Shown here piece by piece: positions 1-17,613 of a stretch of DNA of 64,000 bases. Numbering within the stretch: the first letter of the stretch is position 1; each line of letters opens with the position of its first letter. The notes beneath the pieces were generated by a model that saw only the letters and a list, made by a program, of their open reading frames with translations, was not told the DNA's origin and did no database searches. Source of the stretch: a virus; the IMG/VR virus record IMGVR_UViG_3300043395_003024, positions 1-64,000 of that record. One strand, written 5' to 3'. The translations under genes were made by a program, and so were the position numbers.

Positions 1-295
1 GAGTGCTGGTGCGCCCTGCGAAGGGTGCGGTCAAGCCCACCGCCAAGTCCGAGGCGGTCTGACCAACCGAGCCGAGTGGGTGTAGGTAAGTCCCCACCAC
101 TTACCTACACTCACCCCACCCCCCCCCAAGTGTCCGAGTGGCGCAGGGGGGGGGTAGGGGCTTGCGGTCTAGGTGTAGGTAAGTCTGCGACCGAGGGGCG
201 AGGGTTGGGGCAGGAGCCCCGCCCGAAGCCCGACCAGAACGGGGCTCCACCCCCAGCAGGCAGGGGTCGGCACACGGGGGTGTTCGGCAGGTAGG

Positions 296-325
296 TTGGG
301 AAGTCTGACCCACGGCTGGTACGCT
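296..325 (+). promoter_or_regulatory. Conserved early promoter (motif B), copy 1
   Basis: TTGGGAAGTCTGACCCACGGC-TGG-TACGCT. Extended -10 upstream of the 364 gene, which has RBS GAAAGGGG. Confidence 0.75.
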
Positions 326-363
326 GTGGTCGCCAGTATCAACATGACTGAAAGGGGTCACCA

Positions 364-816
364 ATGGCACAAGCACTACTCATCAAGACCACGGGAGAGG
401 TGGAACTCACCACCGTTCCCGAGGAAGGCGGTCACCTTGTTCTGAACGAACTCTGTGGTGGCTGGATTGACTGCGTTCGCACCGAGGACATTGTTGGCTA
501 TGTGAACGATGAGGGCATTCTCATCGGTCTCGCACCCAACGCTCTCGCAAGTCTCTTGTTCGGTCGCCCCCTTGTGGGCGATGTGGTCGTTCTTGGCGCA
601 CTCAACGATGAGGGCGACTATGACGGAGAGAACCACGATGTTCCCGAGCAGTACGACCCGACCCACTTGGAGACCATCTCTAAGGCTCTGCTCGCTGACG
701 AGAATGTCATGAAGGCTCTCGTTCTCGCCGTTGAGGAAGTCCTGTCCACGCCCCCCACCGTCACTGCCTTCACCGATGAAGAGTTTGACGCATGGCTGAA
801 CGGGAAGGGGGAGTGA
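364..816 (+). CDS. DUF3846-like protein
   Basis: LCGGWID...VNDEG.L..L.PN...LVGDVVVLG pattern; RBS at 350-357. Confidence 0.7.
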   Translation: MAQALLIKTTGEVELTTVPEEGGHLVLNELCGGWIDCVRTEDIVGYVNDEGILIGLAPNALASLLFGRPLVGDVVVLGALNDEGDYDGENHDVPEQYDPTHLETISKALLADENVMKALVLAVEEVLSTPPTVTAFTDEEFDAWLNGKGE

Positions 817-1136
817 CCGTGGAAGGTGTAGGTAAGTCCCCCACCGACACCTACCCCATGCGCACCCTGCGTGTGGGCGAGGTCATCACCCCTGCCAGTA
901 GCGATAACCCCGTGACGGTTCTCGCTTGCTGGCTACTGCGCCCGAGCGATGTAGACGCATACGCCGTGTGGGTGGTGCTGTGCCACCTTCCGCACAACGC
1001 CTTCCACCCTTTCGCCGTGTGGACTGCCTACGACCGACCCGAGGGCTGGTCGTTCGGCGGTGGCGACTACTGCCGAGACATAGCCGAGGGCGTGGCGTGG
1101 TACGAGAGCCGAGGCGGTCAGTACTCGCTGGACTAG
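813..1136 (+). CDS. Hypothetical protein
   Basis: GTG overlaps the upstream stop (GTGA). Motif A is read as GVGK. ATG at 858 is an alternative start. Confidence 0.7.
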   Translation: MTVEGVGKSPTDTYPMRTLRVGEVITPASSDNPVTVLACWLLRPSDVDAYAVWVVLCHLPHNAFHPFAVWTAYDRPEGWSFGGGDYCRDIAEGVAWYESRGGQYSLD

Positions 1137-1470
1137 CGAGTTACCTACACCTGTTCTCCACCCCCCTTGCTTCGGTTGGGCGAGGGGGAGTGGATAGGTG
1201 TGGGATAGGTGTAGGTAAGTCCCCCGAGCCAGTCGGTGGCGGTCAGTCGGTCGGTCGGGGGTCGGGTTGGGGCAGGAGCCCCGCTACATGCACTTGGGCC
1301 GGGGCTTCCTGCGCTCGGCAACGCACGGGGTGTACGGCAGGTTGGGGCGAGCGAAGAAGGGGGTTGTGGGAATCTTTGAGAATCTGGCGAGCACACGGGT
1401 GAGCGCAGCAGGTATCCCCAACAGTTTGACGGTGGTGGAAAGCGGAGATTTGTGTAGGTAAGTCAGCCAG

Positions 1471-1500
1471 TTGGGAAGTCTGACCCACGGCTGGTACAGT
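1471..1500 (+). promoter_or_regulatory. Early promoter motif B, copy 2 (leaderless transcript)
   Basis: TTGGGAAGTCTGACCCACGGC-TGG-TACAGT; the ATG at 1507 is 7 nt after the -10. Confidence 0.75.
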
Positions 1501-1506
1501 ATTGGC

Positions 1507-1779
1507 ATGAGTTACAGCATCACCTCACCCAAGTATCCGCACATCAACATTCCCCTCGTTGGAGAGGACGGCAACGCCTTCTCCATTCTCGGGCGTGTCA
1601 GCCGAATCATGAGGCAGAACGGAATCCGTGACCAGTGGGACGAGTTCCACACCGAAGCCACCTCGGGTGACTACGACAACCTGCTCCTGACCGTCATGCG
1701 CTGGTTCGCCGTGGACGAGCAGTTGGACGAGGACTACGAGGACGACTGGGACGAGGATGACGACGAGGACGAGGAGTAG
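1507..1779 (+). CDS. Conserved phage/ICE hypothetical protein with acidic tail
   Basis: GEDGNAFSILGRV...SGDYDNLL pattern; C-terminal D/E run. Confidence 0.8.
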   Translation: MSYSITSPKYPHINIPLVGEDGNAFSILGRVSRIMRQNGIRDQWDEFHTEATSGDYDNLLLTVMRWFAVDEQLDEDYEDDWDEDDDEDEE

Positions 1780-1781
1780 AA

Positions 1782-1886
1782 ATGACACACACCTGTTCAG
1801 GCTGTGGTGCGTTCTTTCTGACACTCCAAGAACTCATCAACCACATGACCGACAAAGAAGCATGTATCGGAACAAACGAGGACTGA
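1782..1886 (+). CDS. 34-aa zinc-finger-like peptide (not in ORF track)
   Basis: MTHTCSGCGAFFLTLQELINHMTDKEAC fits C-x2-C-x3-F-x5-L-x2-H; upstream GAGGAG; fills the intergenic gap. Confidence 0.6.
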   Translation: MTHTCSGCGAFFLTLQELINHMTDKEACIGTNED

Positions 1887-1887
1887 C

Positions 1888-2073
1888 ATGGGACAGATGA
1901 AGCGAATCTCCGAAATGCTGGACGACATGTTCCGTCCACTATGCAAGAAGTGTGGGCTGATTCCTGCGAACAAGAACGCCTACAACGAGCGATACTGCTT
2001 CTACTGCGAAATGACGGCTGACTGGTGTCAATGCGATGTTTCGGATTTCTGCAAGTGCGAAGGACAGGTGTAG
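1888..2073 (+). CDS. Cys-rich small protein
   Basis: Two CxxC and two CxC motifs; stop TAG supplied by motif A. Confidence 0.7.
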   Translation: MGQMKRISEMLDDMFRPLCKKCGLIPANKNAYNERYCFYCEMTADWCQCDVSDFCKCEGQV

Positions 2074-2086
2074 GTAAGTGTCAGGA

Positions 2087-2236
2087 ATGATGTACACACA
2101 GAGAAACGCCCACTCATGCCCGTGGGGTTGCTGTGGAGATTTCGTCAAAGGTCGTGGAACGAAGCATGCCTGCAAGAAGTGGCATAAGATTCTCCGCACA
2201 CGGGAGAAGCGGAACTGGAAGAAGGAGCAGTGGTGA
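2087..2236 (+). CDS. 49-aa basic Cys-containing peptide (not in ORF track)
   Basis: MMYTQRNAHSCPWGCCGDF...KRNWKKEQW; TGATG coupling to the next gene. Confidence 0.6.
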   Translation: MMYTQRNAHSCPWGCCGDFVKGRGTKHACKKWHKILRTREKRNWKKEQW

Positions 2237-2484
2237 TGGACATCGTAAACGAGCGAATCAAGTCATACATGAAAGACCCAACTCTGTACAGGACAACAGT
2301 TCAGGTCGGGCAATGGGGCAACAGTAATGGTGTAGATAACTATGTTGCCTTCTCGTTCTCTGACGGTGATGACATTCAGACGGCAGAGGACATCTCGCTG
2401 GCTCACATCATTCGTGAGAACAATCTTGACAATGACGACATCACGGAAGTCACGACAGACACATACAAAGAGGTATGGCAATGA
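2236..2484 (+). CDS. Hypothetical acidic protein
   Basis: Translationally coupled at both ends. Confidence 0.7.
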   Translation: MDIVNERIKSYMKDPTLYRTTVQVGQWGNSNGVDNYVAFSFSDGDDIQTAEDISLAHIIRENNLDNDDITEVTTDTYKEVWQ

Positions 2485-2747
2485 ACAAGAACGAACTCTA
2501 CGAAGTCATGGACGCAGTGTGGGACAACTACTTCACGCTTACTACGACTGCGGTGGAAGCGATGGCGATTATTTGGCACGATTATGCCAATGGGACGCTG
2601 TTCGAGTCGCTGAATCAGGACCACGGAATCACCGATGCAGAGTTCTGGGAGATTCTCGTCTCGCTCACGGTGCATGTCCGTGACATTCCCAACCGACGCA
2701 TGCCGGCGATGGAGTTCTACAAAGAGTGGGAAAGCAGGAAGGTGTAG
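2481..2747 (+). CDS. Hypothetical protein
   Basis: ATGA overlap; stop lies in motif A. Confidence 0.75.
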   Translation: MNKNELYEVMDAVWDNYFTLTTTAVEAMAIIWHDYANGTLFESLNQDHGITDAEFWEILVSLTVHVRDIPNRRMPAMEFYKEWESRKV

Positions 2748-2751
2748 GTAA

Positions 2752-3051
2752 GTGTTTCTGTACCTTTCTCTCCTCATTTCCTACCTACGGAACAGTCTGT
2801 TCCACTCTGACCTATTGCTGGTCGGAGCAGAGTGCCATGTTCGGTGGGAGTGGCAGGACGAGCCTGACCTACGAATCATCTCGTTTGCGCCTGAGCCAGA
2901 AGGTGACTGTCCGTTTGACGACTACGGCTGGCACGAAGCGTTTGCGCACCTGAACGGTTTACCTGCACTCATGCGATTCATTAGGCACGGCCGACGCATG
3001 GGCCATGAGTTCGTCAGTGTCAAACTCTGCTACGGAATCATCGCAGAGTAG
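2752..3051 (+). CDS. Hypothetical protein
   Basis: GTG start begins at the last base of motif A; stop abuts the next motif A. Confidence 0.65.
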   Translation: MFLYLSLLISYLRNSLFHSDLLLVGAECHVRWEWQDEPDLRIISFAPEPEGDCPFDDYGWHEAFAHLNGLPALMRFIRHGRRMGHEFVSVKLCYGIIAE

Positions 3052-3273
3052 GTGTAGGTAAGTCTTTCCCCTAGGGGGCGCATCGAGCTGGGAAGCCCCG
3101 CTGCGCTTCATGGTCCACAACCATGCGGGGCTCCTGCCCGAAGGAGCGGGTGGACGGCTCGGGGTGTCCAGCAGGTTGCTCGGGGGTGAGGAGCGCGGAA
3201 CGGGGATGGACGGCAGGTAGCGCACCCCACCCAACGCATTGACGGTGGTGGAAAGGGTTGGTGTAGGTAAGTC

Positions 3274-3303
3274 AGGGGAAGTTTGACCCACTGCTGGTAC
3301 GCT
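3274..3303 (+). promoter_or_regulatory. Early promoter motif B, copy 3
   Basis: GGAAGTTTGACCCACTGC-TGG-TACGCT, same spacing as the other copies. Confidence 0.7.
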
Positions 3304-3337
3304 GTGGACAAGCCACCAAAGCCGAAAGGGAAATCAA

Positions 3338-4093
3338 ATGCCGAACTGGTGCTACAACTACATGACAGTCATGGGGAACAAGCGTGATTTGCGCAAGTTC
3401 ATCTCCGACATCAAGGTTGCAGAAAGTAACCCGAAAGGAATGTACCTTTCATCGGACGAGCAGTACGACCTGAACAAACTTGTACCGCTTGACCCGAGAG
3501 GACTCATTGAGACGACCTACACCCACAAGAACGCAGAGGGTGAAGAAGTCACTACAACAATGACGGTCTTTGCTCAGAAAGAGCGTGACGGCTTTGACGG
3601 ATACCTTGACGCTTGCGAGACATGGGGAAGCAAGTGGGGCGCATGCCGACCCGAAGTGGACGACGAGAATCCTACGAACGGCATGATTTCCATGCGATAC
3701 GAATCTGCGTGGGGTCCGTGTGACGGTCTGATTTCCAAGATTTCTATGCAATACCCGAACCTCATCTTTGGCGTTGCGTCAGACGAGGAATCCCGAGCCT
3801 TCATCTGCTGGACAGTGTTCCACAACGGAGATGTGGTTGAGGCTGGCGAGCGTGACCCGAACTTCCTCACCCCCGAGTTGCAAGAACTGTCTGACAAGGC
3901 AGAAGCAGAGGACGCAGACGATGACGCTTTGGAGATTTGGTGGGAAGCCCACTCTGAATGGAACAACCACCTTATGGAGATGTGCGATGACGACATGCTG
4001 ACATGCATGAAGGAATACAAGAAGCACCTTGCCTATGTTCGCCGTTGCGAGAAAGAAGGGAGAACGCCACGCACATTCATTTCATCTATCTGA
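3338..4093 (+). CDS. DUF1281/YubB ferredoxin-like family protein
   Basis: N-terminal MPNWCYN, plus WGSKW and YESAWGP motifs. Confidence 0.75.
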   Translation: MPNWCYNYMTVMGNKRDLRKFISDIKVAESNPKGMYLSSDEQYDLNKLVPLDPRGLIETTYTHKNAEGEEVTTTMTVFAQKERDGFDGYLDACETWGSKWGACRPEVDDENPTNGMISMRYESAWGPCDGLISKISMQYPNLIFGVASDEESRAFICWTVFHNGDVVEAGERDPNFLTPELQELSDKAEAEDADDDALEIWWEAHSEWNNHLMEMCDDDMLTCMKEYKKHLAYVRRCEKEGRTPRTFISSI

Positions 4094-4149
4094 ACTAGGT
4101 GTAGGTAACTACACACCACCCCCCAAACAAGAAAGAAGGAATCCCCAAC

Positions 4150-4371
4150 ATGGGAACATCAACCAAATCCATTGAGCAAATCTCAGAATCTGTACGGACA
4201 TACCGAAGCGAACAAGGCTGGTCACAGTTGGAACTTGCCAACCGTGCTGGTCTTGACCGCAAGACTGTGAACCGTATTGAGAATGGAAGATTCTCGCCGA
4301 GCGTGGAGACACTGCTCGCCGTAAGCACTGCTCTTGGAGTATCGGTAAACACTCTCCTCGGAGAGAAGTAG
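4150..4371 (+). CDS. XRE/Cro-family HTH transcriptional regulator
   Basis: WSQLELANRAGLDRKTVNRIENGRFSPSVETL. Confidence 0.92.
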   Translation: MGTSTKSIEQISESVRTYRSEQGWSQLELANRAGLDRKTVNRIENGRFSPSVETLLAVSTALGVSVNTLLGEK

Positions 4372-4427
4372 AAACATGGCTGGCATGTGGGGGCTTGTAC
4401 CGACCCCCACTACCAGTGTAGGTAAGT

Positions 4428-4457
4428 GTTGGAAGTCTGACCCACGAATGGTACGCT
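4428..4457 (+). promoter_or_regulatory. Early promoter motif B, copy 4
   Basis: GGAAGTCTGACCCACGAA-TGG-TACGCT directly after motif A. Confidence 0.7.
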
Positions 4458-4495
4458 TCTATCACACCAACCAAACCGCCTGAAAGGGGCAACAA

Positions 4496-5188
4496 ATGAC
4501 ACAGAGAGATAGCGAAGTTCTTGATAACGACATCAAGACAGTCATGGAAGATTTGCTGAACCGAGCAGTGTTCGCAAAGACGGAAATGTGCAAGGACAAC
4601 CCGATGAGTGATAGCCCACCACTGTTCCTTGTCGCAGTTGAGAGCAACGACTCCAACCCCGACCATGACGCATGCTTGGACTACCAGCAGGAGTTCTCGC
4701 TCTCCAAGCCGTACCACCTCGCCATGATTCCTCTCATTCACAAAGAGGACATTTATGACGCATACGAAGATGTGGTGAAGTCACTTCCGATTCGCCCATT
4801 TGAGTTCATTGTCATGCTCGTTGAGGGATACGCCAAAGAGGACATGACCGAGGAAGAAGCAAAGAACCACGACCGAGGCGACTTTGAGAAGGACTACAAG
4901 GAGAACCCCTTCTCTACCGTCCGTGAAGGAATCGTGATGACTGCGGTGGACTGGAACGCCACTGGCATTTGGAACATCGCAAGCCTTTACCGCTATGACG
5001 ACAACGGTGTGCCTGTCTTTGACGATGAACCGAACTGCACGACCACGCCTGTTGATGTGGACTCAGACTCGCACGGTCGCATGCCTGACGCACTGCTCGC
5101 CACAGTCGGATACATGCAACTTGCCACCAAGACGCTCGCCTACAAGGAAATGCTTGACAAGGCTCCGAGGAAAGGCAAGGGGGTGTAG
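4496..5188 (+). CDS. Hypothetical acidic protein
   Basis: RBS GAAAGGGG; stop lies in motif A. Confidence 0.8.
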   Translation: MTQRDSEVLDNDIKTVMEDLLNRAVFAKTEMCKDNPMSDSPPLFLVAVESNDSNPDHDACLDYQQEFSLSKPYHLAMIPLIHKEDIYDAYEDVVKSLPIRPFEFIVMLVEGYAKEDMTEEEAKNHDRGDFEKDYKENPFSTVREGIVMTAVDWNATGIWNIASLYRYDDNGVPVFDDEPNCTTTPVDVDSDSHGRMPDALLATVGYMQLATKTLAYKEMLDKAPRKGKGV

Positions 5189-5195
5189 GTAAGTC

Positions 5196-5345
5196 ATGGA
5201 CAACGAACTGGTAGCCCTAGTGGACAAGGCAATAGCCCACTGTTCGGGCAGAGACATTGTGTCATCGGCAGAGATAACCGACATGCTCTTGGACATTCGC
5301 ATACTTCTCATCACCACCAACACAGAAAGTGAGATTCCAGCATGA
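5196..5345 (+). CDS. 49-aa hypothetical protein (not in ORF track)
   Basis: MDNELVALVDKAIAHCSGRDIVSS...EIPA; ATGA coupling to 5342. Confidence 0.65.
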   Translation: MDNELVALVDKAIAHCSGRDIVSSAEITDMLLDIRILLITTNTESEIPA

Positions 5346-5551
5346 GACGAGCAAGAAACCAGCACCTAATCGGGGAGAGGGTCAGACTCATTTACTGCTC
5401 CGACCCCTACACTCTCCTGAAAGCAGGAGAGGAAGGAACCGTGGATTTCGTAGACGACTGGGGGACGGTGTTCGTCCAGTGGGATAGCGGAAGCAACCTC
5501 GGAATGGTTGAGGAAGCGGGCGACCGCTTTGAGGTCATTGGTCAGGTGTAG
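5342..5551 (+). CDS. DUF4314-like protein
   Basis: GERVRL...DPY..L..GEEGTVDFVDDWGTVFVQWDSGSNL...DRF. Confidence 0.8.
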   Translation: MRRARNQHLIGERVRLIYCSDPYTLLKAGEEGTVDFVDDWGTVFVQWDSGSNLGMVEEAGDRFEVIGQV

Positions 5552-5845
5552 GTAAGTCCCCCCTTTCATTTACCTACACCCGAAGGGGTGTTGCCGTTCG
5601 GCTGGGCGGTGACACCCCTTCTTCGTGCCGGCGGTTATGGGGCAAGGAGCCCCGCCCGAAACGTCAGAAGGCGAGGGGTTAGTTTTCGCCTCGCACGATT
5701 TTTTGATTTTTTCGCATGGGTTCTCGAGAGCTGGCGGCAGAATCCTCGAGATTTCACATTGACGGTGGTGGAAAGCCAAGCCCATTGGCTAAACCCGCCG
5801 CCAGTTTTTCGCTTTTTTGCAGATTCTCAGTTTTTGTTTGCAACT

Positions 5846-5875
5846 CTGGGAAGTCTGGGAGATGGGTGTTAGAGT
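5846..5875 (+). promoter_or_regulatory. Early promoter motif B, divergent copy 5
   Basis: GGAAGT lies 21 nt upstream of the TAGAGT -10 (TGT extension); preceded by T-tracts. Confidence 0.55.
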
Positions 5876-5918
5876 CGGACGGGTTGCACAGCAGGTAAAT
5901 CTAAATGGAGAGAAAGTT

Positions 5919-6401
5919 ATGAACTTTACTATTGAGTTTGTTCACTCAGAGAACGCACGGCTGTATGCCGATTTTGAGAAGAAGTACAAGAAGCCCCAAG
6001 ACAGGTACGCCAACCAGAATGAAAGGTGGCGCATTGCCGAGACGGTGCGTGGGCTGTATGTCATGGAGAAGTGGCAGAGAGAAGGGTGCAATGGGAACCC
6101 TGTTGCAATGTTGCGTTTCTACTCACTCAGCGAAGATGTGCTGTCCTCATTCATCAAGACTTACCTACCACATGTCAATGCCAAAGACAGTGGAATCGTC
6201 AAGACGGAGAAGCGCAAGGATAAGTACGGCGCATTTGACGAATGGGCAGATGAACACAGGGGCGGAGAGTTCACCACTGACCAACTCGTTGAGATTTCTG
6301 GATTTTCGTACCAGACCACTCTGAAGTACGTCAGCGATTCTCCGATTTTCATCAAGGTCAAGAAGGGGCTGTGGCGAATCGCCGACCCCAAAGATGAGTG
6401 A
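5919..6401 (+). CDS. Hypothetical protein, possible C-terminal winged HTH
   Basis: FTTDQLVEISGFSYQTTLKYV...FIKVKKGLW; RBS GGAG. Confidence 0.7.
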   Translation: MNFTIEFVHSENARLYADFEKKYKKPQDRYANQNERWRIAETVRGLYVMEKWQREGCNGNPVAMLRFYSLSEDVLSSFIKTYLPHVNAKDSGIVKTEKRKDKYGAFDEWADEHRGGEFTTDQLVEISGFSYQTTLKYVSDSPIFIKVKKGLWRIADPKDE

Positions 6402-6666
6402 CCAGTAGGTGTAGGTAAGTCCACCAAAGTGTAGGTAAGTGGAAATAATCGACCCAAGAGCCCCGGCCCGCCCATGACCAGCGGGGCTCCAGCCCGAAGG
6501 GGTGGTGGGGGCGCACGGGGTGCGGTGCAGGTTGCTGGCAGGCGAGCGGGGGTGTTCGGCAGGTTGCTGGCGAAGCACGGACACGCTCTCGCAGTAGGTG
6601 TAGGTAACCCACCGCAGGTGTAGGTAACCGCCCCATGAGGTGTAGGTAAGTAGGTGTCAACAGAAG

Positions 6667-6696
6667 TCGGGAAGTCTGACCCACGGGTGGTATGGT
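6667..6696 (+). promoter_or_regulatory. Early promoter motif B, copy 6
   Basis: GGAAGTCTGACCCACGGG-TGG-TATGGT, preceded by three tandem motif A copies. Confidence 0.7.
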
Positions 6697-6736
6697 GTGC
6701 CTGTCCGTAACCAACCGCTTACAAAGGAGCAATACA

Positions 6737-7462
6737 ATGGACGCAACAACGGAGACAGCACTTCCGCAGTGCTGGCAAGATGTCAAGGACGCACTTGACG
6801 CAGGCATTGACCGAGTGATTCTGTTCGGTCCTGCTGGAACTGGCAAGACCTACGCAGGCTTGTCGTTCGGAGACATTGAGGCTGGTGCGTACCGCCTCGT
6901 CTGCACCGAGGACATGACCAACATGGACGTAACTGGTGGCTTCATGCCGTCAGCGAACGGTGGCTTCCAGTGGCTTGACGGCTCTGCCCTCAAAGCGTGG
7001 AAGGGCAACGGAACGAAGGGTGGTCGCCTCATCGTGGACGAAGTGGACAAGGCTGGTGGCGATGTGTTCGCAACCCTGCTCGCCATGCTGGATTCTCCCG
7101 AATCGGCTTCCTTCCAGCACCCCGAGACTGGCGAGACTGTTCGCCCTCTTGACGGATTCTCTGCGGTGATGACCACCAACATTGAGAACATGAGCGAACT
7201 GCCCACGGCACTCGCTGACCGCTTCCCGATTCGTATCCGAATCAACGAACCGCACCCGAACGCACTTCTCCGCTTGTCTCCCGACCTGCGTGGCTACGCC
7301 GTTCGCATGGCAGACGGTGGCGAGGCTCGTATCTCGCTCCGTGCGTTCATGGCACTGGACAAGTTGCGCAAGTCGGTCGGAATGGAGCGAGCCTGCCAAC
7401 TCACATTCGGCAACCGTGCCATGCAGATTCTTGACGCTCTCGCAGTGGACGGAGTGCGCTGA
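6737..7462 (+). CDS. MoxR/CbbQ/CobS-like AAA+ ATPase
   Basis: Walker A GPAGTGKT, Walker B LIVDE, sensor TTN, ALADRF; RBS AAAGGAG. Confidence 0.9.
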   Translation: MDATTETALPQCWQDVKDALDAGIDRVILFGPAGTGKTYAGLSFGDIEAGAYRLVCTEDMTNMDVTGGFMPSANGGFQWLDGSALKAWKGNGTKGGRLIVDEVDKAGGDVFATLLAMLDSPESASFQHPETGETVRPLDGFSAVMTTNIENMSELPTALADRFPIRIRINEPHPNALLRLSPDLRGYAVRMADGGEARISLRAFMALDKLRKSVGMERACQLTFGNRAMQILDALAVDGVR

Positions 7463-7463
7463 A

Positions 7464-9038
7464 ATGTCGCTGAACCCTGCCAAGTCAGGTGTAGGTAAGT
7501 CGTTCCCCTCTCCGCTCTCAGACGCAGAGAGGGGGGCGCACCGCCCTGAACCGAACATGCTCGGACGCAAAGACCTTGCCCATGAGCGTTGGACTGTTGA
7601 GGACTGCCGTGCCGTGCGTGGCGAGCCTCGTACCGACCTTGCACACCGTGTCATGTTCGCACCGTCAGCAGACGGTGAAATGGAGCGTGTCGTTCGTGCG
7701 CACGAAATGATGCATGCGAAGGTGTCGCCCTCGCCCGAGCAAATGGAAGTGTTTATCGCTCGCTCTATCGCCTCTGCTACTGCCATGACAGTTGTTGAGG
7801 AACTGCGAGTGAACTACCTCTGTCAGAAGGCTGGCTTTGATGTCAAGACGCACCTCGCAGACGGAAACGAACTTTCCGCAGGCGAGCAACTTGCCAAGTC
7901 AAACGACTGGGCAGGCGCAGTGGCGACTTGTATCGCCACCGTTGGTACTGCCGGTCACAAGCCATTCCTGAACGGAATCCGCAGGCACAACCGAGCATGG
8001 GGTGACGCACTGGTGGACATTGGCAAGCGAGCCATGAAGGAAATGCGCAAGGCTGACCAGTATCGCACACTCGCAAGCACCGATACCCATGAAGGCGTTG
8101 CTCCGTACGGATTCACCCACACCGAGCGACTTGCCGAGTGGGTGGACAGGCTCGCCTCGTTCCCACCGCCGAAGTCTCGCAAGAACGACCCGAAGGGGAA
8201 GGCTGGCAAGAAGGAAGGCGAAGGCAAAGGTGTAGGTAAGTCCGAGGACGGTGACGGAGACAAGGAACACTCTGCCGAGTACGAGGAGACTGACGGAGAG
8301 AAGGAAGGCGATAGGGACGGAAACCCACACGGCAAAGTCACCCCTGCTGAATCAGGTGGTGCGAGCCGTTGGGCAGAACTGCGTGTCAGTCGTGAACCGT
8401 TGCCTCGTTACCACTACGGCTCAATGGGCAAGAAGCGAATCGCCACGAATGTCGGTATTCGCCCACGGCGCATGCACCGCTACATGACCGACCCTGCGAA
8501 GCGTGTCTTTGACAAGACGGTGCGTGGTAGTGGTGGCATGGTCATCATTGACGCAAGTGGGTCAATGTCATTCACCACCGAGCAAATCGCAGAAATCATT
8601 GAGAACGCTCAGGGTGCGACTGTCCTCATCTACTCCGACCGTGGGCGTGGCAAGGGTGACCAGCCGAACGCATGGGTCGTGGCAGACAAGGGACGCATGG
8701 TGGAGAATGTGGAATACATTGACTACGGACACGGCAACGGCGTGGACTTCCCTGCTATTGAGTGGGGCGTGAGGAATCGTCAATACAAGAACACTCCGCT
8801 CGTGTGGGTCACAGACGGTGGGGTGTGCGGTGCAAATGACGGATTCTCCGACCTGCTCGCCATGCAGTGCATTACATACGCTCGTCAGCACCGCTACATC
8901 GTGGTTCCCCACATTGAGGAAGCCATTGAGCAGTTGCGCAACCTGAAAGTGAATGGCAAGGCACACAGCGTGTTCCCATACACATTCCGCAACATCTACT
9001 ACAAGCACATGGGAGTACCGCTCCCCGAGCGTGAGTAG
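7464..9038 (+). CDS. vWA-domain partner of the AAA+ ATPase, with HExxH motif
   Basis: AHEMMH; MIDAS DASGS; VTDG; charged linker. Confidence 0.8.
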   Translation: MSLNPAKSGVGKSFPSPLSDAERGAHRPEPNMLGRKDLAHERWTVEDCRAVRGEPRTDLAHRVMFAPSADGEMERVVRAHEMMHAKVSPSPEQMEVFIARSIASATAMTVVEELRVNYLCQKAGFDVKTHLADGNELSAGEQLAKSNDWAGAVATCIATVGTAGHKPFLNGIRRHNRAWGDALVDIGKRAMKEMRKADQYRTLASTDTHEGVAPYGFTHTERLAEWVDRLASFPPPKSRKNDPKGKAGKKEGEGKGVGKSEDGDGDKEHSAEYEETDGEKEGDRDGNPHGKVTPAESGGASRWAELRVSREPLPRYHYGSMGKKRIATNVGIRPRRMHRYMTDPAKRVFDKTVRGSGGMVIIDASGSMSFTTEQIAEIIENAQGATVLIYSDRGRGKGDQPNAWVVADKGRMVENVEYIDYGHGNGVDFPAIEWGVRNRQYKNTPLVWVTDGGVCGANDGFSDLLAMQCITYARQHRYIVVPHIEEAIEQLRNLKVNGKAHSVFPYTFRNIYYKHMGVPLPERE

Positions 9039-9206
9039 GTGTAGGTAAGTCGCCCGAGAGGGTGGCGGTGGGCTTGGACACTCACCGTCACCCGAACGGC
9101 GTTGGTACAAGAGTTACCTACACCTTGTACCACCACTGCCCCGAGCGTGAGAGCCATGCTCCTTTGGTTCTCCGCAGGGGCGGTGGGAAAGGGGAGCAGT
9201 GTAGGT

Positions 9207-9446
9207 ATGTTGGAATCGGTACTAGGAACAGAGGCAAGCACAGTGGACGAAGAAGAACTACTAGACGAGTTGTATGACACCCTCACGAATCTCTGTCACC
9301 ACTACGAAGGAATGAAGCGTGAACTCGCAAAGGGCGACTACACGGCAGAGCAAGCGGAACGAGACTGGACTGCACTCACATACAACGAGGGAATGAATGT
9401 TCTGCCGATACTGGCAGACATGTTTCAGAAAGTGAAAGAACCATGA
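9207..9446 (+). CDS. Hypothetical protein
   Basis: ATG within a motif A variant; RBS GGGGAG. Confidence 0.65.
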   Translation: MLESVLGTEASTVDEEELLDELYDTLTNLCHHYEGMKRELAKGDYTAEQAERDWTALTYNEGMNVLPILADMFQKVKEP

Positions 9447-9589
9447 GAACGCCACGACCCGAACAGCCCGAAGGACATGAGAGCAAGTGTCCGTGCGCAC
9501 AGTGCGACTCATGGGCATACGCACTCATTGAGTGGGAACAGCAAGAAGTCACTGCTGGTCGTGACCCGTGGGCAGAGTACCGCCTATGA
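9443..9589 (+). CDS. 48-aa Cys-containing peptide (not in ORF track)
   Basis: MRTPRPEQPEGHESKCPCAQCDSW...; ATGA overlap. Confidence 0.55.
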   Translation: MRTPRPEQPEGHESKCPCAQCDSWAYALIEWEQQEVTAGRDPWAEYRL

Positions 9590-9710
9590 CCCACTTACCT
9601 ACACTCGTCCTGCTCACGCTCGCAGTCGTGCTTGCAGGCATGCTCACTGCATGCACGGTGCATGCTCACAGCATGCTCGTACTGCCAGTGGTACTAGGTG
9701 TAGGTAAGTC

Positions 9711-10031
9711 CTACGACTCTCGCTTTGCGCTCTCCCACGACATGAGAGAGAGTGAACGCCACACGCAGTACAGCGTTCCTAGTTTCAGAGAATCCGACCA
9801 ACCGACTTGCCACGTCACGATTCCTGCCGATTCTGCGACACGCAGTGTTGCCCAGAAGACGGCCGTGTGCGTCAGCGCAAGAAGGACGAATCCGAGAAGT
9901 GCGTTCGGCTCTCGCCGGCTCCGGCTGCGCTTCTTTGGGGCAGGAGCCCCGCTTGAAATCGGAGAATCTCGGAAAGCCCTCGGAAAGCTGCCAGAAGATT
10001 TATTTGTGTTTTTCCAATTTTGAGAAACCAT
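9711..10031 (-). CDS. Putative membrane protein
   Basis: Hydrophobic segments; RBS AGGAG on the minus strand. Confidence 0.55.
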   Translation of the reverse strand: MVSQNWKNTNKSSGSFPRAFRDSPISSGAPAPKKRSRSRREPNALLGFVLLALTHTAVFWATLRVAESAGIVTWQVGWSDSLKLGTLYCVWRSLSLMSWESAKRES

Positions 10032-10082
10032 GCCATCTCCTCGTGCGGGAACTAATTGACGGTGGTGGAAGACCTTGGCGGC

Positions 10083-10457
10083 CTACGAGATTTTTAGTTT
10101 TTTGATTATCTGATGTACGCGCTGCCGCGACAAATCAAACTCATCTGCGATTTCACGCAGCGACTTGCCAGAAATCCGAAGTTCGCGAATTGATTCATTT
10201 CTTGCAGAATCCGTCGCCGGCCCTGGCTGGAATGGACCCCACTGCCAACCATTGATTTGCTCAAGCCTGGTTACACGTGCTGCAGGAAGTTGATTTTTGC
10301 GAAATCTCTGACGGATATAGCCGGCCCATGCACCGAGAGAAATTTCTTTTTCATTTACGATTTCAATATGAGATGCTGGAATCTTCGAATTTCCATTTTT
10401 TGAAATGTAAAGCTCGAGGGCCTCGACATACATATTGAATTTTGTGCTGTTGTCCAT
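10083..10457 (-). CDS. Helicase-associated (HA) domain plus sigma70 region-4 HTH protein
   Basis: ALELY...NG...IP...LGAW...RQ....L...R..RLE...W; LREIADEFDLSRQRVHQII. Confidence 0.8.
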   Translation of the reverse strand: MDNSTKFNMYVEALELYISKNGNSKIPASHIEIVNEKEISLGAWAGYIRQRFRKNQLPAARVTRLEQINGWQWGPFQPGPATDSARNESIRELRISGKSLREIADEFDLSRQRVHQIIKKLKIS

Positions 10458-10473
10458 AGACGAGATATTAGTA

Positions 10474-10487
10474 CGAACATATGTTCG
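10474..10487. promoter_or_regulatory. LexA (SOS) box, Gram-positive/actinobacterial type
   Basis: Perfect palindrome CGAAC-ATAT-GTTCG next to the TAATAT -10 (10470-10465) of the 10457 gene. Confidence 0.8.
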
Positions 10488-10547
10488 GTGCTGGTGAAAA
10501 AGTCAAAAATCTCGTTTTTTATTTACTGGCAGCATTTAAAAATCTAG

Positions 10548-10576
10548 TTGACAAAACCGACGGTGGTGGATAAGAT
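10548..10576 (+). promoter_or_regulatory. Sigma70/SigA promoter, leaderless
   Basis: TTGACA-N17-TAAGAT with motif C in the spacer; ATG 7 nt downstream. Confidence 0.85.
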
Positions 10577-10582
10577 GTTGAC

Positions 10583-10810
10583 ATGCAAGTCCAGACGCTC
10601 ATAGAAGCATTGCAGAAGCTGGATAAGGACGCAGAGATTTGTGCACTTATCTACACCAAAGACCAGTTTGATTACGACCCCGACGATGAGGTTGAACTGA
10701 CCACCGAGGACTGGAACAAACTGTGTCAAGAGTTTGACGAAACCCCTTTTGCGGACATATGGGAATCCATTGCTATGGGCGTCAGCGATTATGCAAAGGA
10801 CAAGGACTAA
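10583..10810 (+). CDS. Hypothetical acidic protein
   Basis: ORF starts at the predicted +1. Confidence 0.75.
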   Translation: MQVQTLIEALQKLDKDAEICALIYTKDQFDYDPDDEVELTTEDWNKLCQEFDETPFADIWESIAMGVSDYAKDKD

Positions 10811-10989
10811 TGGGACTAGTCAGTCACATAGTTACCTACAAAGTAGGTAAATCACGTGGACGCCGTAAAGCCGAACGAAATCAGCCAAAGGCGGAAGACT
10901 CACGTGACCCAGACTGCCTGAATTATGCGTCTTTTTGTAAGCACTTCGGCAGCTGTGATGGTCAAAAATGCGAATACGAGGAGGTATAG
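10810..10989 (+). CDS. Small Cys-rich protein
   Basis: TAATG coupling; stop lies in a motif A variant. Confidence 0.65.
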   Translation: MGLVSHIVTYKVGKSRGRRKAERNQPKAEDSRDPDCLNYASFCKHFGSCDGQKCEYEEV

Positions 10990-10993
10990 GTAA

Positions 10994-11227
10994 GTGCCTG
11001 TATACAGAGTTCAAGTAATGGTCGGCGTGGATGTGGAAGCAGAATCGCCCCAGCGTGCCATGGGTGAGGCAATCACAAAAGTTCGTCAAGAACTCGGCGA
11101 AGACCCAATTGCTCCAATGCCAAAACCAGCTTGGGTTACTGGAATTGTTCAGTGCGACCCACTCGACTGGGGTCATACGGCTATCGAGGGTTATATGGTT
11201 TTCGAGACATCGGCGAAACCAGCCTAA
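10994..11227 (+). CDS. Hypothetical protein
   Basis: GTG start; coupled to the next ORF. Confidence 0.7.
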   Translation: MPVYRVQVMVGVDVEAESPQRAMGEAITKVRQELGEDPIAPMPKPAWVTGIVQCDPLDWGHTAIEGYMVFETSAKPA

Positions 11228-11376
11228 TGCCAGCGTACGAATGTACCGAATGTGGTTCAGTCGCGTTTATCCATGACGCGTGCGAGCTCTGCGGCCTCGA
11301 GACGGATTTCTTCAAAAATCAAAAATCTTCCCTGGCCGCTGCGGCCGCGGACTCCACAGAAAAAGAGAAAAAATGA
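11227..11376 (+). CDS. Zinc-ribbon peptide
   Basis: MPAYECTECG...CELCG. Confidence 0.65.
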   Translation: MPAYECTECGSVAFIHDACELCGLETDFFKNQKSSLAAAAADSTEKEKK

Positions 11377-11837
11377 ACAACGAATACTGGGACACGTCTG
11401 GGAATGCAAGCCCATTTGAAAAAAACAAGCTCGTCGAAATGTTGACAAAGTCAGGCGCTGAGCTCGACGTAGCTCATGAAGTTGCAAATCAGCTTTCTCT
11501 GATTGACGAAGAGAACAACAACGTAATTTTCATTTTTACCGACGACAACCAGATGGTTGTAACTGGAATTCATGTACCTGCAGAGTCTCTTAACGGAGAA
11601 ACTGGACCAGTGCTTATGCGTGGCGGAAACGATAAATCGATAATCGCAGCTTTCTCTCGAGACTTCATCGTCGAGAAACTTGAAAAAGTCGAATTAATGG
11701 AGGAGGGAGCGGGGCTCCACAGAGCTGGCGATGCCGAATGGATTACTGAGTTGGAGAATCTCGCCGAGCTAGTTAGAATCGAAATGAAAGCCAACCCCCC
11801 AGAGAGCTGGGATGACCTGTTGGCAGGGGGTAACTAG
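11373..11837 (+). CDS. Hypothetical protein
   Basis: ATGA overlap. Confidence 0.75.
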   Translation: MNNEYWDTSGNASPFEKNKLVEMLTKSGAELDVAHEVANQLSLIDEENNNVIFIFTDDNQMVVTGIHVPAESLNGETGPVLMRGGNDKSIIAAFSRDFIVEKLEKVELMEEGAGLHRAGDAEWITELENLAELVRIEMKANPPESWDDLLAGGN

Positions 11838-11841
11838 AAAG

Positions 11842-12528
11842 ATGTTGACGGTGGTGGAAGAGATGGAACCAGGGAACCCAAGGTCATGGAACGAGGCTGC
11901 GGCAATCTGCGTTTCTGAGATTTTTGACGAAATTGGCGGACCTCTGGGGCATCTTCGAAAAGTAGAAGAAAATGGAAAAAACAGAATTGTGAGCTCGAGC
12001 GGCCCGGCGGCAGAAATCGAGAATTCTTTAAATTCTGTACTCGAAGGCCTTTCGATAATCGATAATCAATTCGAGGGAATGGTCCAATCTAGGGAATGGT
12101 TCCCGTCGGACCAGATGTGCTGGGTAGAAGAATGGAAAAATCTCGGCTCCATCGCGGCAGCTGCTGGCATCAAAAACGGAAATTTATTCAATATCCACCA
12201 GGGCCCTGGCGGTCATCCAGAAAATCTGATTTCCTCAGCTTCCGCGGCAGCTTCACTCGACAGCTGGATGCTTCGCGAAGACATCACATCGACACTGATT
12301 CGTAAACAATCAGATTACGGACATCACAATATTGCGCGTTTTGGTCGACACGGTCTCGTCGTGCGCTGCCATGACAAAATCGCAAGATTGAAGAATTTGC
12401 ATCTGGCCCGCGGCGGCCAGGCAGCCAACGAATCACTTACTGATACCTACACCGATATTGTCGGATACTCCGCGATTGGGATGATGTGGGAACGTGGGTG
12501 GTTTCTGTTAGATTTAACCAGAGACTAG
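11842..12528 (+). CDS. Nucleotide-modification-associated domain 1 (DUF1599-like) protein
   Basis: RKQSDYG...GLVVR..DKIARLKNL...ESLTDTYTDIVGYS. Confidence 0.75.
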   Translation: MLTVVEEMEPGNPRSWNEAAAICVSEIFDEIGGPLGHLRKVEENGKNRIVSSSGPAAEIENSLNSVLEGLSIIDNQFEGMVQSREWFPSDQMCWVEEWKNLGSIAAAAGIKNGNLFNIHQGPGGHPENLISSASAAASLDSWMLREDITSTLIRKQSDYGHHNIARFGRHGLVVRCHDKIARLKNLHLARGGQAANESLTDTYTDIVGYSAIGMMWERGWFLLDLTRD

Positions 12529-12535
12529 GAAGGGA

Positions 12536-12841
12536 TTGACGGTGGCGGAAGAGACGCAAAAAGCCGTATGGGAGAGGGCGCTCGGCGTCTCGATTAACTT
12601 CCCCGAAGACGACACGGATGAAATCGATGTATGGGCAGCATTTGCGTCGCCGGCTCCGATTATTAAACAGGAACATTTCCACCAGGCAATCGACGAGCTA
12701 CCAGAAATAGAAGCAATTATTGCCAAATCCTTGGTACACCATGGCGTGAATATCTGGCTCGGAATTCCAGAACACATAATCGAGGAGCTCGAGCGCGCCG
12801 GCTACAAAATCTCAAAAACGAGAAAATCTACGCGGCAGTAA
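12536..12841 (+). CDS. Hypothetical protein
   Basis: TTG start within motif C. Confidence 0.65.
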   Translation: MTVAEETQKAVWERALGVSINFPEDDTDEIDVWAAFASPAPIIKQEHFHQAIDELPEIEAIIAKSLVHHGVNIWLGIPEHIIEELERAGYKISKTRKSTRQ

Positions 12842-12867
12842 AAAGCCGGTGTAGGTAACTACTAGAA

Positions 12868-13140
12868 ATGGAAAACATGAATACTCAAGAACTCGAAGTA
12901 AAGCTTCTTGAAGCCGTTCTTTACAACGAAGAAACGGGCGAGCTACACACCCCAGAAGAAAGGGCAGAAAATCTTGATGCAATTCGACTCAAGCTTATTG
13001 AGTTGGGTAATGCATTTGAAAAAATGGACGACATATCGATTGGGATAAGAATGGTATACATCCAGACTTTCATACGTGTCACTGAGACATATCTCGGAAT
13101 TAACGAAAAACATGAAGAACTTCTGGACGCCGGCAGGTAA
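12868..13140 (+). CDS. Hypothetical protein
   Basis: Follows the last exact motif A copy. Confidence 0.7.
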   Translation: MENMNTQELEVKLLEAVLYNEETGELHTPEERAENLDAIRLKLIELGNAFEKMDDISIGIRMVYIQTFIRVTETYLGINEKHEELLDAGR

Positions 13141-13142
13141 CC

Positions 13143-13298
13143 ATGGCGCCAGAAGACATCGAAGTGGAGTTTCTTGCTTTTCAAGAAAGCTGGCGCGACG
13201 ACGTCCTGCTACGTGAGGCAGACATCAAAGCTGAATATCAGGATTTTTGTGATGCGCAGCGGGATGCTTACCTGGATGAGCTCGAGGCCGGCGAATGA
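13143..13298 (+). CDS. 51-aa acidic peptide (not in ORF track)
   Basis: MAPEDIEVEFLAFQESWRDD...ELEAGE; coupled to the next ORF. Confidence 0.6.
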   Translation: MAPEDIEVEFLAFQESWRDDVLLREADIKAEYQDFCDAQRDAYLDELEAGE

Positions 13299-13420
13299 AA
13301 TTCTTCTTTTTCTCCTACATGGCGCTGCTGGGATGGTTCTTTTTCTGGCTAAGGCCTCGTGTTAATGATGGCCGCATAGAAGACATAGTCAACAACATTC
13401 AAAAAAGGATAAAAAAATAA
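13295..13420 (+). CDS. 41-aa membrane peptide (not in ORF track)
   Basis: MKFFFFSYMALLGWFFFWLRP...; ATGA and TAATG overlaps. Confidence 0.55.
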   Translation: MKFFFFSYMALLGWFFFWLRPRVNDGRIEDIVNNIQKRIKK

Positions 13421-13764
13421 TGAATCTAATTCTCACGTTCGGAGCACTCCTGGCGGCCATGGCGGCAATGACTATTTTCGCCGATTCTTTGTCCAGATGG
13501 AACGAGCGACGTCAGTATCGTCGAGCTACTCACCCGCGAAATATCGAAAAAACCGCAAACCATCTTCTGGAGCTCGAGCTGCAGCAGTTGCTGCTCGAAG
13601 AGGAAATTAAAGAAAAAGCACGAAACCGGATGGAGCACCCGTCGAGCTATTCAAAAACCGTCGGCGGCGGCCTCGATGGCAAAACCAAGGAAATTCTCGC
13701 AAAACTGACAGACCCGCGGCCGGCGCGGCGCGATAGGAACAACCAGTTCTGGTGGGGCGAGTGA
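13420..13764 (+). CDS. Membrane-anchored hypothetical protein
   Basis: N-terminal TM segment followed by coiled coil. Confidence 0.7.
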   Translation: MNLILTFGALLAAMAAMTIFADSLSRWNERRQYRRATHPRNIEKTANHLLELELQQLLLEEEIKEKARNRMEHPSSYSKTVGGGLDGKTKEILAKLTDPRPARRDRNNQFWWGE

Positions 13765-13873
13765 AAAGCGAAGGTGCCCCCGGGGAGTCAAAGACGGCCA
13801 CCTACCAACCCATCAATGAACTCAACCCGGGGGCGAACTTCTTTCCGGGCGAAAGGGGAACCCGTAGGAAGCC
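13765..13873 (-). ncRNA. Candidate small RNA (two hairpins)
   Basis: Extended -10 TGTGG-TAATTT at 13889-13879; GC stem 13776-13834 followed by U-run. Confidence 0.35.
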
Positions 13874-13968: not shown

Positions 13969-13971
13969 TCC

Positions 13972-17606: not shown

Positions 17607-17613
17607 AACTTAT

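Follow-up and report, generated by a model that had tools for sequence, protein, structure and literature searches.

What is the function of a short, directional DNA word that a phage repeats dozens of times along one segment of its genome, at gene ends, beside promoters, and even within a coding region? This question is raised by the first 64,000 nucleotides (hereafter the window) of the IMG/VR record IMGVR_UViG_3300043395_003024, a viral genome of 145,204 bp (hereafter G000) that is 91% complete and lacks a terminal repeat. In the window, the 10-bp word GTGTAGGTAA has 28 copies, 23 on the plus strand and five on the minus strand, all within positions 80–12858, compared with the 0.07 copies expected from dinucleotide-preserving shuffles. 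The same count for the first 13 kb had been given in an initial annotation of the sequence, which proposed a DNA-level system acting on the first-expressed genes. In this work, we confirmed the sites and found them to be strongly conserved, aligned with gene direction, adjacent to promoters, phased, and switched in concert among related phages. The word is located in short gene junctions and next to promoters, overlaps stop and start codons, and is asymmetric; it is a selected, transcription-oriented signal that most probably acts at the DNA level, as that annotation had it. The word may well be an operator or "stoperator"-like site at which a DNA-binding regulator encoded by the phage would shut off early transcription or insulate it.

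Distribution, conservation, and concerted switching of the word

The full word is aGGTGTAGGTAAGTc, an asymmetric sequence of 13–15 bases. An information profile of all exact copies showed a single compact block, aG-GTGTAGGTAA-GTc, and no further conserved block within 25 nt on either side. Allowing up to one mismatch in the 12-mer added matches at 10646 (minus) and 10983 (plus), together with an unrelated one at 59333 (minus). In the complete record, another 12 copies of GTGTAGGTAA were found at 136.4–144.0 kb (40 copies in total), and none in the approximately 120 kb between the two motif-bearing ends. The earlier statement that copies are lacking past 13 kb except for a variant at 20076 is correct for the window (the variant is at 20075) but not for the record. 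Counted over the full genome, the strand-biased word is confined to one block rather than spread uniformly. The two motif-bearing ends have a G+C content of 56%, compared with approximately 47% in the remainder, and open reading frames (ORFs) are cut by both contig ends. Because the word is present at both ends of the record, this block wraps around the contig ends.

A 15-mer scan of a viral collection returned one contig with nine copies, which led to a complete 158-kb relative with terminal repeats (G001); a near-identity search of the GenBank phage collection gave no match. G000 and G001 are collinear (inverted) with 72–83% nucleotide identity. The contig break of G000 corresponds to 14.3 kb of G001, and approximately 14 kb of the block is absent from the G000 record. 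The GC-rich early block of G000 is approximately 35 kb, of which approximately 22 kb is present in the record. In G001, 76 exact copies are located within 11.7–46.5 kb, one outlier aside. The expected conservation in relatives was found: among the 35 copies that can be aligned between these two genomes, 33 are intact (10/10 identical), whereas the flanking 100 nt on each side are only 71–88% identical (approximately 79%). At this level of identity, the chance for a 10-mer to be intact is approximately 9% (0.79^10).

Using the 524-amino-acid (aa) protein encoded at 7464–9038 as a marker, we gathered 80 related loci and counted 10-mers de novo. Five sister clades have their own, equally dense and strand-biased words (GAGTAGATAAGT, AGAGTAGATAAC, AGGTAGATAAGT, AATAGATAAGTC, and CTAATAGATAACT), such that six spellings exist when that of G000 is included; GAGTAGATAAG is an example found at equivalent places, and ATAGATAAGTC is the spelling in a relative. 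All spellings have the core TAG(G/A)TAA(G/C)T in common, and the 5′ part is clade-specific. Three further complete genomes (151–159 kb) have 67–94 copies, and in G004 and G006 the listed copies are within one block of 30–37 kb. Five full-length distant relatives have zero to four copies, which is the control level. Site density is bimodal, with 1.8–2.7 sites per kb in one group and at most 0.33 per kb in the other.

The strongest single result came from the comparison between G000 and G004. At approximately 24 orthologous sites, GTGTAGGTAA in G000 is replaced by GAGTAGATAA in G004, with the same two substitutions each time, while the flanks of these sites differ at random (approximately 80% identity). 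Many early genes of G000 are closer to those of G004 than to those of G001, although the word is common to G000 and G001. Such a concerted switch implies a trans-acting, phage-encoded reader, since a host factor is not expected to change between phages that are approximately 80% identical. A copy within the linker of the 524-aa protein follows the same pattern. It is GGT GTA GGT AAG (GVGK) in G000 and G001, GGA GTA GAT AAG (GVDK) in the clades A1 and A2, and CTA ATA GAT AAC (LIDN) in clade A5, which is A5's own spelling. Because each peptide is encoded by the word of its own clade, the nucleotide word is retained at the cost of the peptide; this intragenic copy is retained in at least four clades, each with its own spelling. 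Furthermore, the copy at 2068 is read through as GVGK within a single 170-codon frame in G001, whereas its TAG is a stop codon in G000 and approximately 400 bp of extra sequence follows.

Placement relative to genes and promoters

Gene calls were drawn from three sources, namely, a near-identical JGI contig, ORFs supported by conservation, and a codon-usage caller made for this analysis. They bear out the earlier observation that five genes with a C-terminal Val terminate on the TAG within the word, one of them (ending at 10989) via a variant. Exact copies supply the stop of the genes ending at 2073, 2747, 5188, 5551, and 138450, with GTG (Val) as the preceding codon in the first four. The two abutting stops that had been noted were also confirmed; the genes ending at 3051 and 9038 have a TAG of their own that abuts the word. 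Among copies located between two same-strand genes, co-orientation is found in 22 of 28 in G000 and 44 of 57 in G001 (approximately 78%). A copy is found within 15 nt of 44% of gene ends, compared with 21% of gene starts. Only six of 29 sense copies in G000 are within approximately 15 nt of a start codon, and the distances range from 0 to more than 300 nt. At the convergent junction at 9.6–9.7 kb, each orientation is found just past the end of the unit on its own strand. The sense bias is not a coding artefact, since all three antisense frames of the word are open.

Promoters of the host type (sigma-A, extended -10), here called B promoters, have the consensus TTGGGA-N18-TGGTAYNNT. In G000, G001, and G004, approximately two-thirds of them have a co-oriented copy of the clade word at or just 5′ of the -35 element, with the core TAG(G/A)TAA(G/C) ending 6–13 nt before AAGTCTG. 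One such copy (142277, minus) is in a divergent intergenic region, 5′ of the first gene of its unit; little sense transcription is expected there, and neither an RNA signal nor a roadblock would be expected to act. Among direct repeats spaced by at most 60 bp, 10 of 21 have spacings of 19–22 bp, i.e., two helical turns. Copies in the minority orientation often have an opposite copy within 110 nt (36 of 57), at variable spacings of 15–110 nt. The placement at -35 elements (including the divergent site), the two-turn phasing, and the orientation-specific placement just past the ends of genes and units favour a DNA-binding reader over an RNA reader. The word is self-contained: among 394 pooled sites, no -10-like element at a fixed offset was found, except for the approximately 10% of sites that precede B promoters. 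Hairpins do not follow the motif preferentially, as flank stability has no upstream/downstream asymmetry. The copies in the window and the features associated with them are as follows.

80–89 (plus) and 101–110 (minus): inverted pair of copies, 11 nt apart; both 10/10 in G001
173–182 (plus): copy opening a composite junction, kept in G001 and GAGTAGATAA in G004; followed by a hairpin (205–227), a promoter (297–325), and gene 364–816
205–227, 1267–1289, 5638–5660, and 6481–6546: hairpin elements related to that at 3125–3190
297–325 (plus): sigma-A-type promoter B, TTGGGA-N18-TGGTACGCT, with extended -10
826–835 (plus): copy 10 nt past the stop of gene 364–816, overlapping the 5′ end of ORF 792–1136
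1141–1150 (minus): antisense copy, partner of that at 1209
1209–1218 (plus): copy opening a composite junction
1452–1461 (plus): copy whose TAGGTAAG core ends 13 nt 5′ of AAGTCTG, at the sigma-A-type promoter 1472–1500
1472–1500, 3275–3303, 4429–4457, and 6668–6696 (plus): further B promoters; a weaker one at 5847–5875
2068–2077 (plus): copy whose TAG is the stop of gene 1888–2073
2742–2751 (plus): copy whose TAG is the stop of gene 2475–2747; the next gene starts at 2752
3052–3061 (plus): copy abutting the stop codon 3049–3051
3125–3190 (plus): GC-rich hairpin element, flanked on either side by a copy within a composite junction
3261–3270 (plus): copy directly 5′ of promoter 3275–3303
4099–4108 (plus): copy 41 nt 5′ of the XRE gene, within the inverted repeat GGTGTAG-GTAA-CTACAC
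4150–4371 (plus): gene for a 73-aa XRE/Cro-type helix-turn-helix (HTH) protein
4416–4425 (plus): copy abutting the -35 of promoter 4429–4457
5183–5192 (plus): copy whose TAG is the stop of gene 4496–5188, kept in G001; next ATG at 5196
5546–5555 (plus) and 5570–5579 (minus): inverted pair; gene 5342–5551 ends on the TAG of the first copy
6409–6438 (plus): two direct copies, 20 bp apart, 8 nt past the stop of gene 5862–6401
6598–6649 (plus): three direct copies, spacings of 20 and 22 bp, 5′ of promoter 6668–6696 of the AAA_5/524-aa operon
7464–9038 (plus): gene for the 524-aa protein, without a family match; neighbouring AAA_5 ATPase gene at 6692/6737–7462
7489–7498 (plus): copy among the initial codons of the 524-aa gene and 27 nt beyond the preceding stop; G000/G001 clade only
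8230–8239 (plus): copy deep within the 524-aa gene, where the acidic linker is encoded
9039–9048 (plus): copy abutting the stop of the 524-aa gene
9114–9123 (minus): antisense copy, looped out between the arms of the inverted repeat GGTACAAG...CTTGTACC
9595–9604 (minus): copy past the minus-strand unit 9711–10457, approximately 107 nt from where this unit ends
9698–9707 (plus): conserved copy beyond the end of the plus-strand unit, facing the convergent minus-strand genes
10646–10657 (minus): one-mismatch variant GGTGTAGATAAG, approximately 190 nt 5′ of the HA/HTH gene
10983–10994 (plus): one-mismatch variant GGTATAGGTAAG, whose TAG is the stop of gene 10810–10989
12849–12858 (plus): last copy in the window, 10 nt 5′ of gene 12868–13140

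Long junctions have the order stop, word, hairpin, (TTGACGG element), word, promoter, and gene. Within genes, the word had been described as always being read as GVGK. This reading is correct, but it is not an independent signal; TAG-GTG-TAG and TAA close the other two sense frames, which leaves GGT GTA GGT AAG as the sole open reading. Only one of the three copies regarded as intragenic (8230) is truly deep, whereas those at 826 and 7489 are 10 and 27 nt past the upstream stop and are thus junction copies that overlap the start of the next ORF. The deep copy is indeed in a linker, which is low in complexity, rich in indels, and composed of G/E/K/D; the assignment of this 524-aa protein as a vWA protein could not be confirmed, with no match in Pfam and PDB sequence searches.

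It had also been suggested that site density itself is under selection, as no gap between 79 and 9708 exceeds approximately 850 bp. The largest start-to-start gap is 849 bp. In the co-directional core of G000, G001, and G004, the largest gap between motif loci is 850–1,010 bp, compared with a null median of 1,700–1,950 bp (P about 1e-4 after cluster collapse, with the core chosen post hoc); across the entire block, the same test did not reach significance. The tight spacing in the core and the maintained mid-gene copy are suggestive of selection on density but fall short of proof.

Several other features of this region were observed. An approximately 82-bp segment that ends in a copy is inverted between G000 (139733–139814; L011:6733-6814) and G001 (43210–43290; L137:14210-14290) with respect to the synteny around it, such that its copy is sense in G001 but antisense in G000. 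The window also has another polar element, TTGACGGTGGTGGAA, at 1424–1442, 3237–3255, 5757–5775, 10054–10072, 11843–11861, and 12534–12552. It is the top repeated word in distant motif-less relatives (five to nine copies on a single strand), where it is located approximately 10 nt upstream of a -35-like ACTTGTT. The HA + sigma-r4-like HTH protein (10083–10457) is a plausible reader of this conserved element because its recognition helix, LSRQRVHQI, is invariant across the family. The proteins encoded by the early block (window 364–13140 and G000 136–144 kb) are mostly acidic, with isoelectric points of 4–5.5 for approximately 30 of 40, and the families include DUF3846, an Api92-like ferredoxin-like domain, DUF4314, DUF932, and an SNF2 helicase. 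Such a gene set recalls plasmid leading regions or anti-defence cargo.

Candidate readers and competing explanations

Among the DNA-binding proteins named earlier as candidate readers, only the XRE protein (4150–4371) tracks the word by presence, and it is the best, though unproven, candidate on the basis of gene content. Its gene was found in 17 of 17 loci with dense motifs and two of 37 sparse loci; at the genome level, it is present in four of four motif-bearing genomes and one of four motif-less genomes. In dense loci, the spelling of the respective clade is invariably present 35–45 nt upstream of it. The closest relatives with solved structures are SinR and the 434 repressor. Just 3′ of this gene, the 230-aa ORFan 4496–5188 and the 49-aa ORF 5196–5345 are found only in motif-bearing clades. 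The 230-aa protein evolves fast, with identities from 81% down to 36%, and could either work together with the XRE protein or antagonise it.

The other candidates were set aside. The recognition helices of the winged HTH protein (5862–6401, 179 aa) and the HA/sigma-r4 protein (10083–10457) are invariant even in motif-less relatives, and the ribbon-helix-helix protein at 15331 and the MarR/TrmB protein at 20090 are common in such relatives. The 230-aa ORFan (4496–5188) and a 154-aa ORFan (11373–11837) track the motif but are strongly acidic, and the 133-aa and 162-aa basic proteins of G001 do not track the spelling. A whole-genome phyletic screen passed two basic proteins with low-complexity basic tails, of 226 aa (98855–99535) and 240 aa (66337–67059), for which no family match was found; the gene for the former is located between a portal-sized gene and the major capsid gene, and both are probably virion-internal or scaffold proteins. 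A discordance screen for proteins closer to those of the motif-sharing G001 than to those of G004 returned 39 proteins and gave no discrimination.

Several functions other than that of an operator were considered. The word could be a stand-alone promoter or -10-like melting element, with the 5′ half as the specificity region, for a phage-specific transcription machinery (i.e., either the RNA polymerase of the host, diverted by a phage factor that has escaped recognition, or a phage polymerase that has done so). There is approximately one co-oriented copy per gene, often in the 3′ end of the upstream gene, and the conserved 3′ half, TAG(A/G)TAA, is AT-rich in a block with 56% GC while the 5′ half varies by clade. 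Promoters of the T7 group vary in a similar manner, the concerted switch would fit a co-evolving polymerase or factor equally well, and the over-represented words of distant relatives are parts of promoters. Nevertheless, we consider this function unlikely. Tandem copies 19–22 bp apart, convergent pairs 11–25 nt apart, a conserved unit-end copy aimed into convergent genes (9698), copies 0–3 nt before start codons (2752 and 5196) with otherwise varying distances to starts, and a mid-gene copy retained across clades are all difficult to reconcile with promoters, and many copies are immediately 5′ of a separate sigma-A-type promoter. No catalytic motif of RNA polymerase was matched in any ORF by a regular expression, Sigma70_r2 was not found (control positive), and the T7-type domain PF00940 was not found in a search whose control was also silent. 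A signal acting in mRNA for processing, stability, or translation, read by a phage RNA-binding protein or nuclease, would account for the strand bias, which is obligatory for such a signal, and for the strong invariance of the word. Antisense and sense copies could then pair into hairpins of 12–15 bp that serve as terminators, RNase targets, or masks, and the variable spacing of the opposite-orientation pairs described above is what hairpin loops allow; there are also Shine-Dalgarno-like stretches (AGGT/AGGTG) and approximately 10 copies at 1–10 nt before a start. We regard a role in RNA as quite improbable because copies 5′ of a -35 element, including that in the divergent intergenic region, would have little or no sense RNA, and the 19–22-bp phasing of direct repeats has no RNA rationale. 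Moreover, both flanks are approximately 2 kcal/mol more stable than random windows of the block in a symmetric fashion, no Rfam family was matched, and no complement of the word that could be a trans RNA is present outside the block.

Two further explanations concern DNA processing. As a recombination or cassette-boundary sequence, the word would drive the gain, loss, and shuffling of small early genes, analogous to PeSL-mediated shuffling in T4-type phages or to the homogeneous attC repeats of chromosomal integrons. Small, mostly ORFan genes are lined up along the block with a homogeneous repeat between them; at 1.2–3.2 kb, the homology to G001 is limited to short patches centred on copies, and the insertion of approximately 400 bp starts 2 nt past the copy at 2068. 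Synteny breakpoints are within 15 nt of a copy in 23% of cases, compared with 7% for random positions, but gene ends are at least as near to copies (44%), and alignments tend to stop at a conserved word anyway; the earlier idea of gene gain or loss at the motif was thus not specifically supported. Searches for tyrosine and serine recombinases (PF00589 and PF00239, both controls positive) found none in G000 or in the complete G001. Second-order selection is not expected to keep 33 of 35 copies and an intragenic copy, or to switch orthologous sites between stable flanking genes, and this explanation appears very unlikely. Less likely still is a polar processing or decoy signal, such as a Chi/KOPS-like sequence, a strand-specific nick site, or a field for titration of a host protein, even though the signal is polar, dense, and confined to the presumably first-expressed segment. 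The polarity of Chi/KOPS is independent of the local gene strand, whereas the orientation here follows it, flipping twice inside the block and being found both ways at the convergent junction, which speaks against the analogy made in the initial annotation. The complement of the word, TTACCTACA, matches the DnaA box TTATCCACA at seven of nine positions, and true DnaA-box clusters are present in several early intergenic regions of the relative L203. The C of CACA in the DnaA box is not known to vary. In every clade, the complement of the word (TTACCTACA or TTATCTAC(T/C)) differs from the box (TTWTNCACA, read by DnaA domain IV) at this C, no Bac_DnaA_C domain is encoded, and a host reader does not explain the different spellings in phages that are approximately 80% identical. 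The DnaA boxes of the relative (L203:700-3900 of G008, a 156-kb motif-less genome) form four clusters of two to four perfect boxes, TTATCCACA/TTGTCCACA, in both orientations and in successive intergenic regions, and may be an analogous site field read by the host DnaA. The resemblance of the word to a eukaryotic 5′ splice site (AGGTAAGT) was set aside as coincidental, as this is a tailed actinobacterial phage and the other clades have different spellings.

For the favoured operator/stoperator reading, we propose that a phage-encoded, fast-evolving, sequence-specific DNA-binding protein would bind aGGTGTAGGTAAGTc and govern the approximately 35-kb early block. Copies beside the -35 of host-type early promoters would serve as operators, and those at gene ends may, depending on their orientation, block elongating RNA polymerase or insulate against it. 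As the reader accumulates, the entire early block would be shut off or partitioned. Three elements of this reading are inferred, namely, the protein nature of the reader, repression rather than activation as its effect, and its identity with the XRE protein. In a phage that apparently does not integrate, scheduled shut-off or insulation of the early block would be the most economical role.

Several points weigh against this reading. No homologue of L5 gp71 was found. The association between the XRE gene and the word is confounded by common descent, since there are only approximately six clades. The HTH of the XRE protein is identical in A0, A1, and A2 though the spelling of A0 differs, and it is the N-terminal arm that varies; homologues with the same recognition helix are also present in two motif-less relatives that lack the upstream site. 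SinR and the 434 repressor are dimers that bind symmetric sites. The near-invariance of the word (40 exact copies compared with approximately eight one-mismatch variants) is tighter than in usual operator sets, and the variably spaced pairs of opposite orientation would also fit RNA or cruciform hairpins. As the complete G001 has no integrase or serine recombinase, a role in lysogenic immunity is unsupported. Another reading is that the sites, rather than being a simple repressor/operator set, would be nucleation points, needed at least every 0.9 kb or so, from which a sequence-specific protein would coat or insulate the first-expressed 35 kb, with its rapidly switching specificity marking "self" early DNA in each phage lineage. 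The protein might arrive from the capsid with giant polyvalent proteins, and the mark could lead to scheduled silencing, shielding from host defences, or exclusion of co-infecting relatives. We view such a coat as quite doubtful.

Comparison with known systems and implications for the host and phage

Stoperators of Cluster A mycobacteriophages have a dual operator and stoperator role in L5 and its relatives (PMC9283540), and the repressor, a monomeric protein of approximately 183 aa with an N-terminal HTH and a Stoperator domain, confers immunity in these temperate phages. Heteroimmune subclusters have divergent stoperator motifs (PMC6550527). The sites described here are similar to those of Cluster A (L5 gp71, Bxb1, and TipsytheTRex) in being asymmetric, 13–15 bp long, and present in tens of copies per genome in phages of actinobacterial hosts. 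In both systems, the sites neighbour early promoters, are also found in short intergenic gaps, run into stop and start codons, follow the direction of transcription, and differ in spelling between related phage groups. However, 67–103 sites are concentrated here in one block of approximately 35 kb, compared with up to approximately 30 genome-wide in Cluster A, and the genomes are 150–159 kb rather than approximately 50 kb. Further differences are the tandem arrays with a period of approximately 20 bp, the inverted pairs, and the intragenic copy that has been maintained. When L5 gp71 was compared by phmmer and blastp with every six-frame ORF of G000, G001, and G004, the lowest E was 0.79. The layout thus matches that of the L5/Bxb1 stoperators, a likeness that the initial annotation had pointed out, whereas neither a gp71-type repressor nor, in the searches for integrases and serine recombinases, a sign of temperate biology was found; the system is stoperator-like in its working but does not belong to the L5 family.

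Other systems resemble the present one in part. Start-associated sequences and their extended forms (SAS/ESAS) in Cluster K are found 3–7 bp from start codons and have an AGGAG Shine-Dalgarno core (PMC3203893). They are also 13-bp asymmetric repeats with one orientation in the non-structural part of the genome, sometimes with the upstream stop inside the repeat. In contrast, only a minority of the copies here are within 10 nt of a start, AGGAG is absent, and the tie to gene ends is closer. PeSL elements of T4-type phages (PMC2839356 and PMC4122927) combine a stem-loop with a sigma-70 early promoter and are associated with indels between close relatives. They are repeated between small variable early genes, as are our composite junctions of a stop, a GC-rich hairpin, and a sigma-70-type early promoter; here, the word is an extra element that brackets the composites, being neither promoter nor stem-loop, and is also found alone at simple junctions and inside a gene. 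Concerted switching between clades is not a property of PeSL elements. The C1 operators of phage P1 and the promoter/polymerase sets of the T7 group involve many dispersed asymmetric copies served by one phage reader, with co-variation between relatives. They are comparable to the present word in the dispersal of one asymmetric sequence and in the variation of spellings, but neither a C1-like repressor nor a single-subunit RNA polymerase was found in these genomes.

The host is an actinobacterium, as indicated by a WhiB-family gene (16598–16948) in G000; whiB has been used as an actinophage marker (PMC10914622). Distant homologues of the 524-aa marker are mostly found in metagenome-assembled genomes of freshwater Actinomycetota. 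In a riverine metatranscriptome run, 9% of the words of the G000 sequence were present. The contigs on positions 1–20000 (358–630, 1517–1912, 2026–2225, 2515–2665, 10691–10863, and 13562–13709, plus a deep tRNA piece) are few, short, and low in depth, and they lack end or strand information. The tRNA gene (16053–16124, 65.8 bits in Rfam) has a high depth in this metatranscriptome, and the contigs covering it are probably common to other organisms.

The virion module is tailed-phage-like, and the phage apparently does not integrate. Three giant ORFs of 2,441–2,948 aa are encoded at 77635–86466 (L012:635-9466), 88361–95686, and 111737–120583 of G000. The first encodes a polyvalent protein with prohead protease (S78), ArdC-N, zincin MPTase, and UvrD-type helicase domains, and a DEDDh exonuclease domain is present in the third. 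For the 2,441-aa ORF, no family was matched, and look-ups in the Atlas gave weak zincin-like leads only. A tryptophan-halogenase-like gene (40971–42521; PHROG 2928, E 9e-104) is located among collagen-like tail-fibre genes.

If the favoured reading is true, an abundant group of freshwater actinobacterial phages of approximately 150 kb would run their whole early programme via 70–100 copies of one word, and this would represent an independent origin of the stoperator principle outside of Cluster A, apparently without lysogeny. In uncultured genomes, the word can serve to outline the early block and the gene boundaries within it, and the clade spellings provide ready probes for specificity swaps, with GGTGTAGGTAAGTC of the G000/G001 type and GGAGTAGATAAGTC of the G004 type. 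The concerted rewriting, which occurred several times, would be a natural experiment in the co-evolution of DNA-binding specificity and dozens of dispersed targets.

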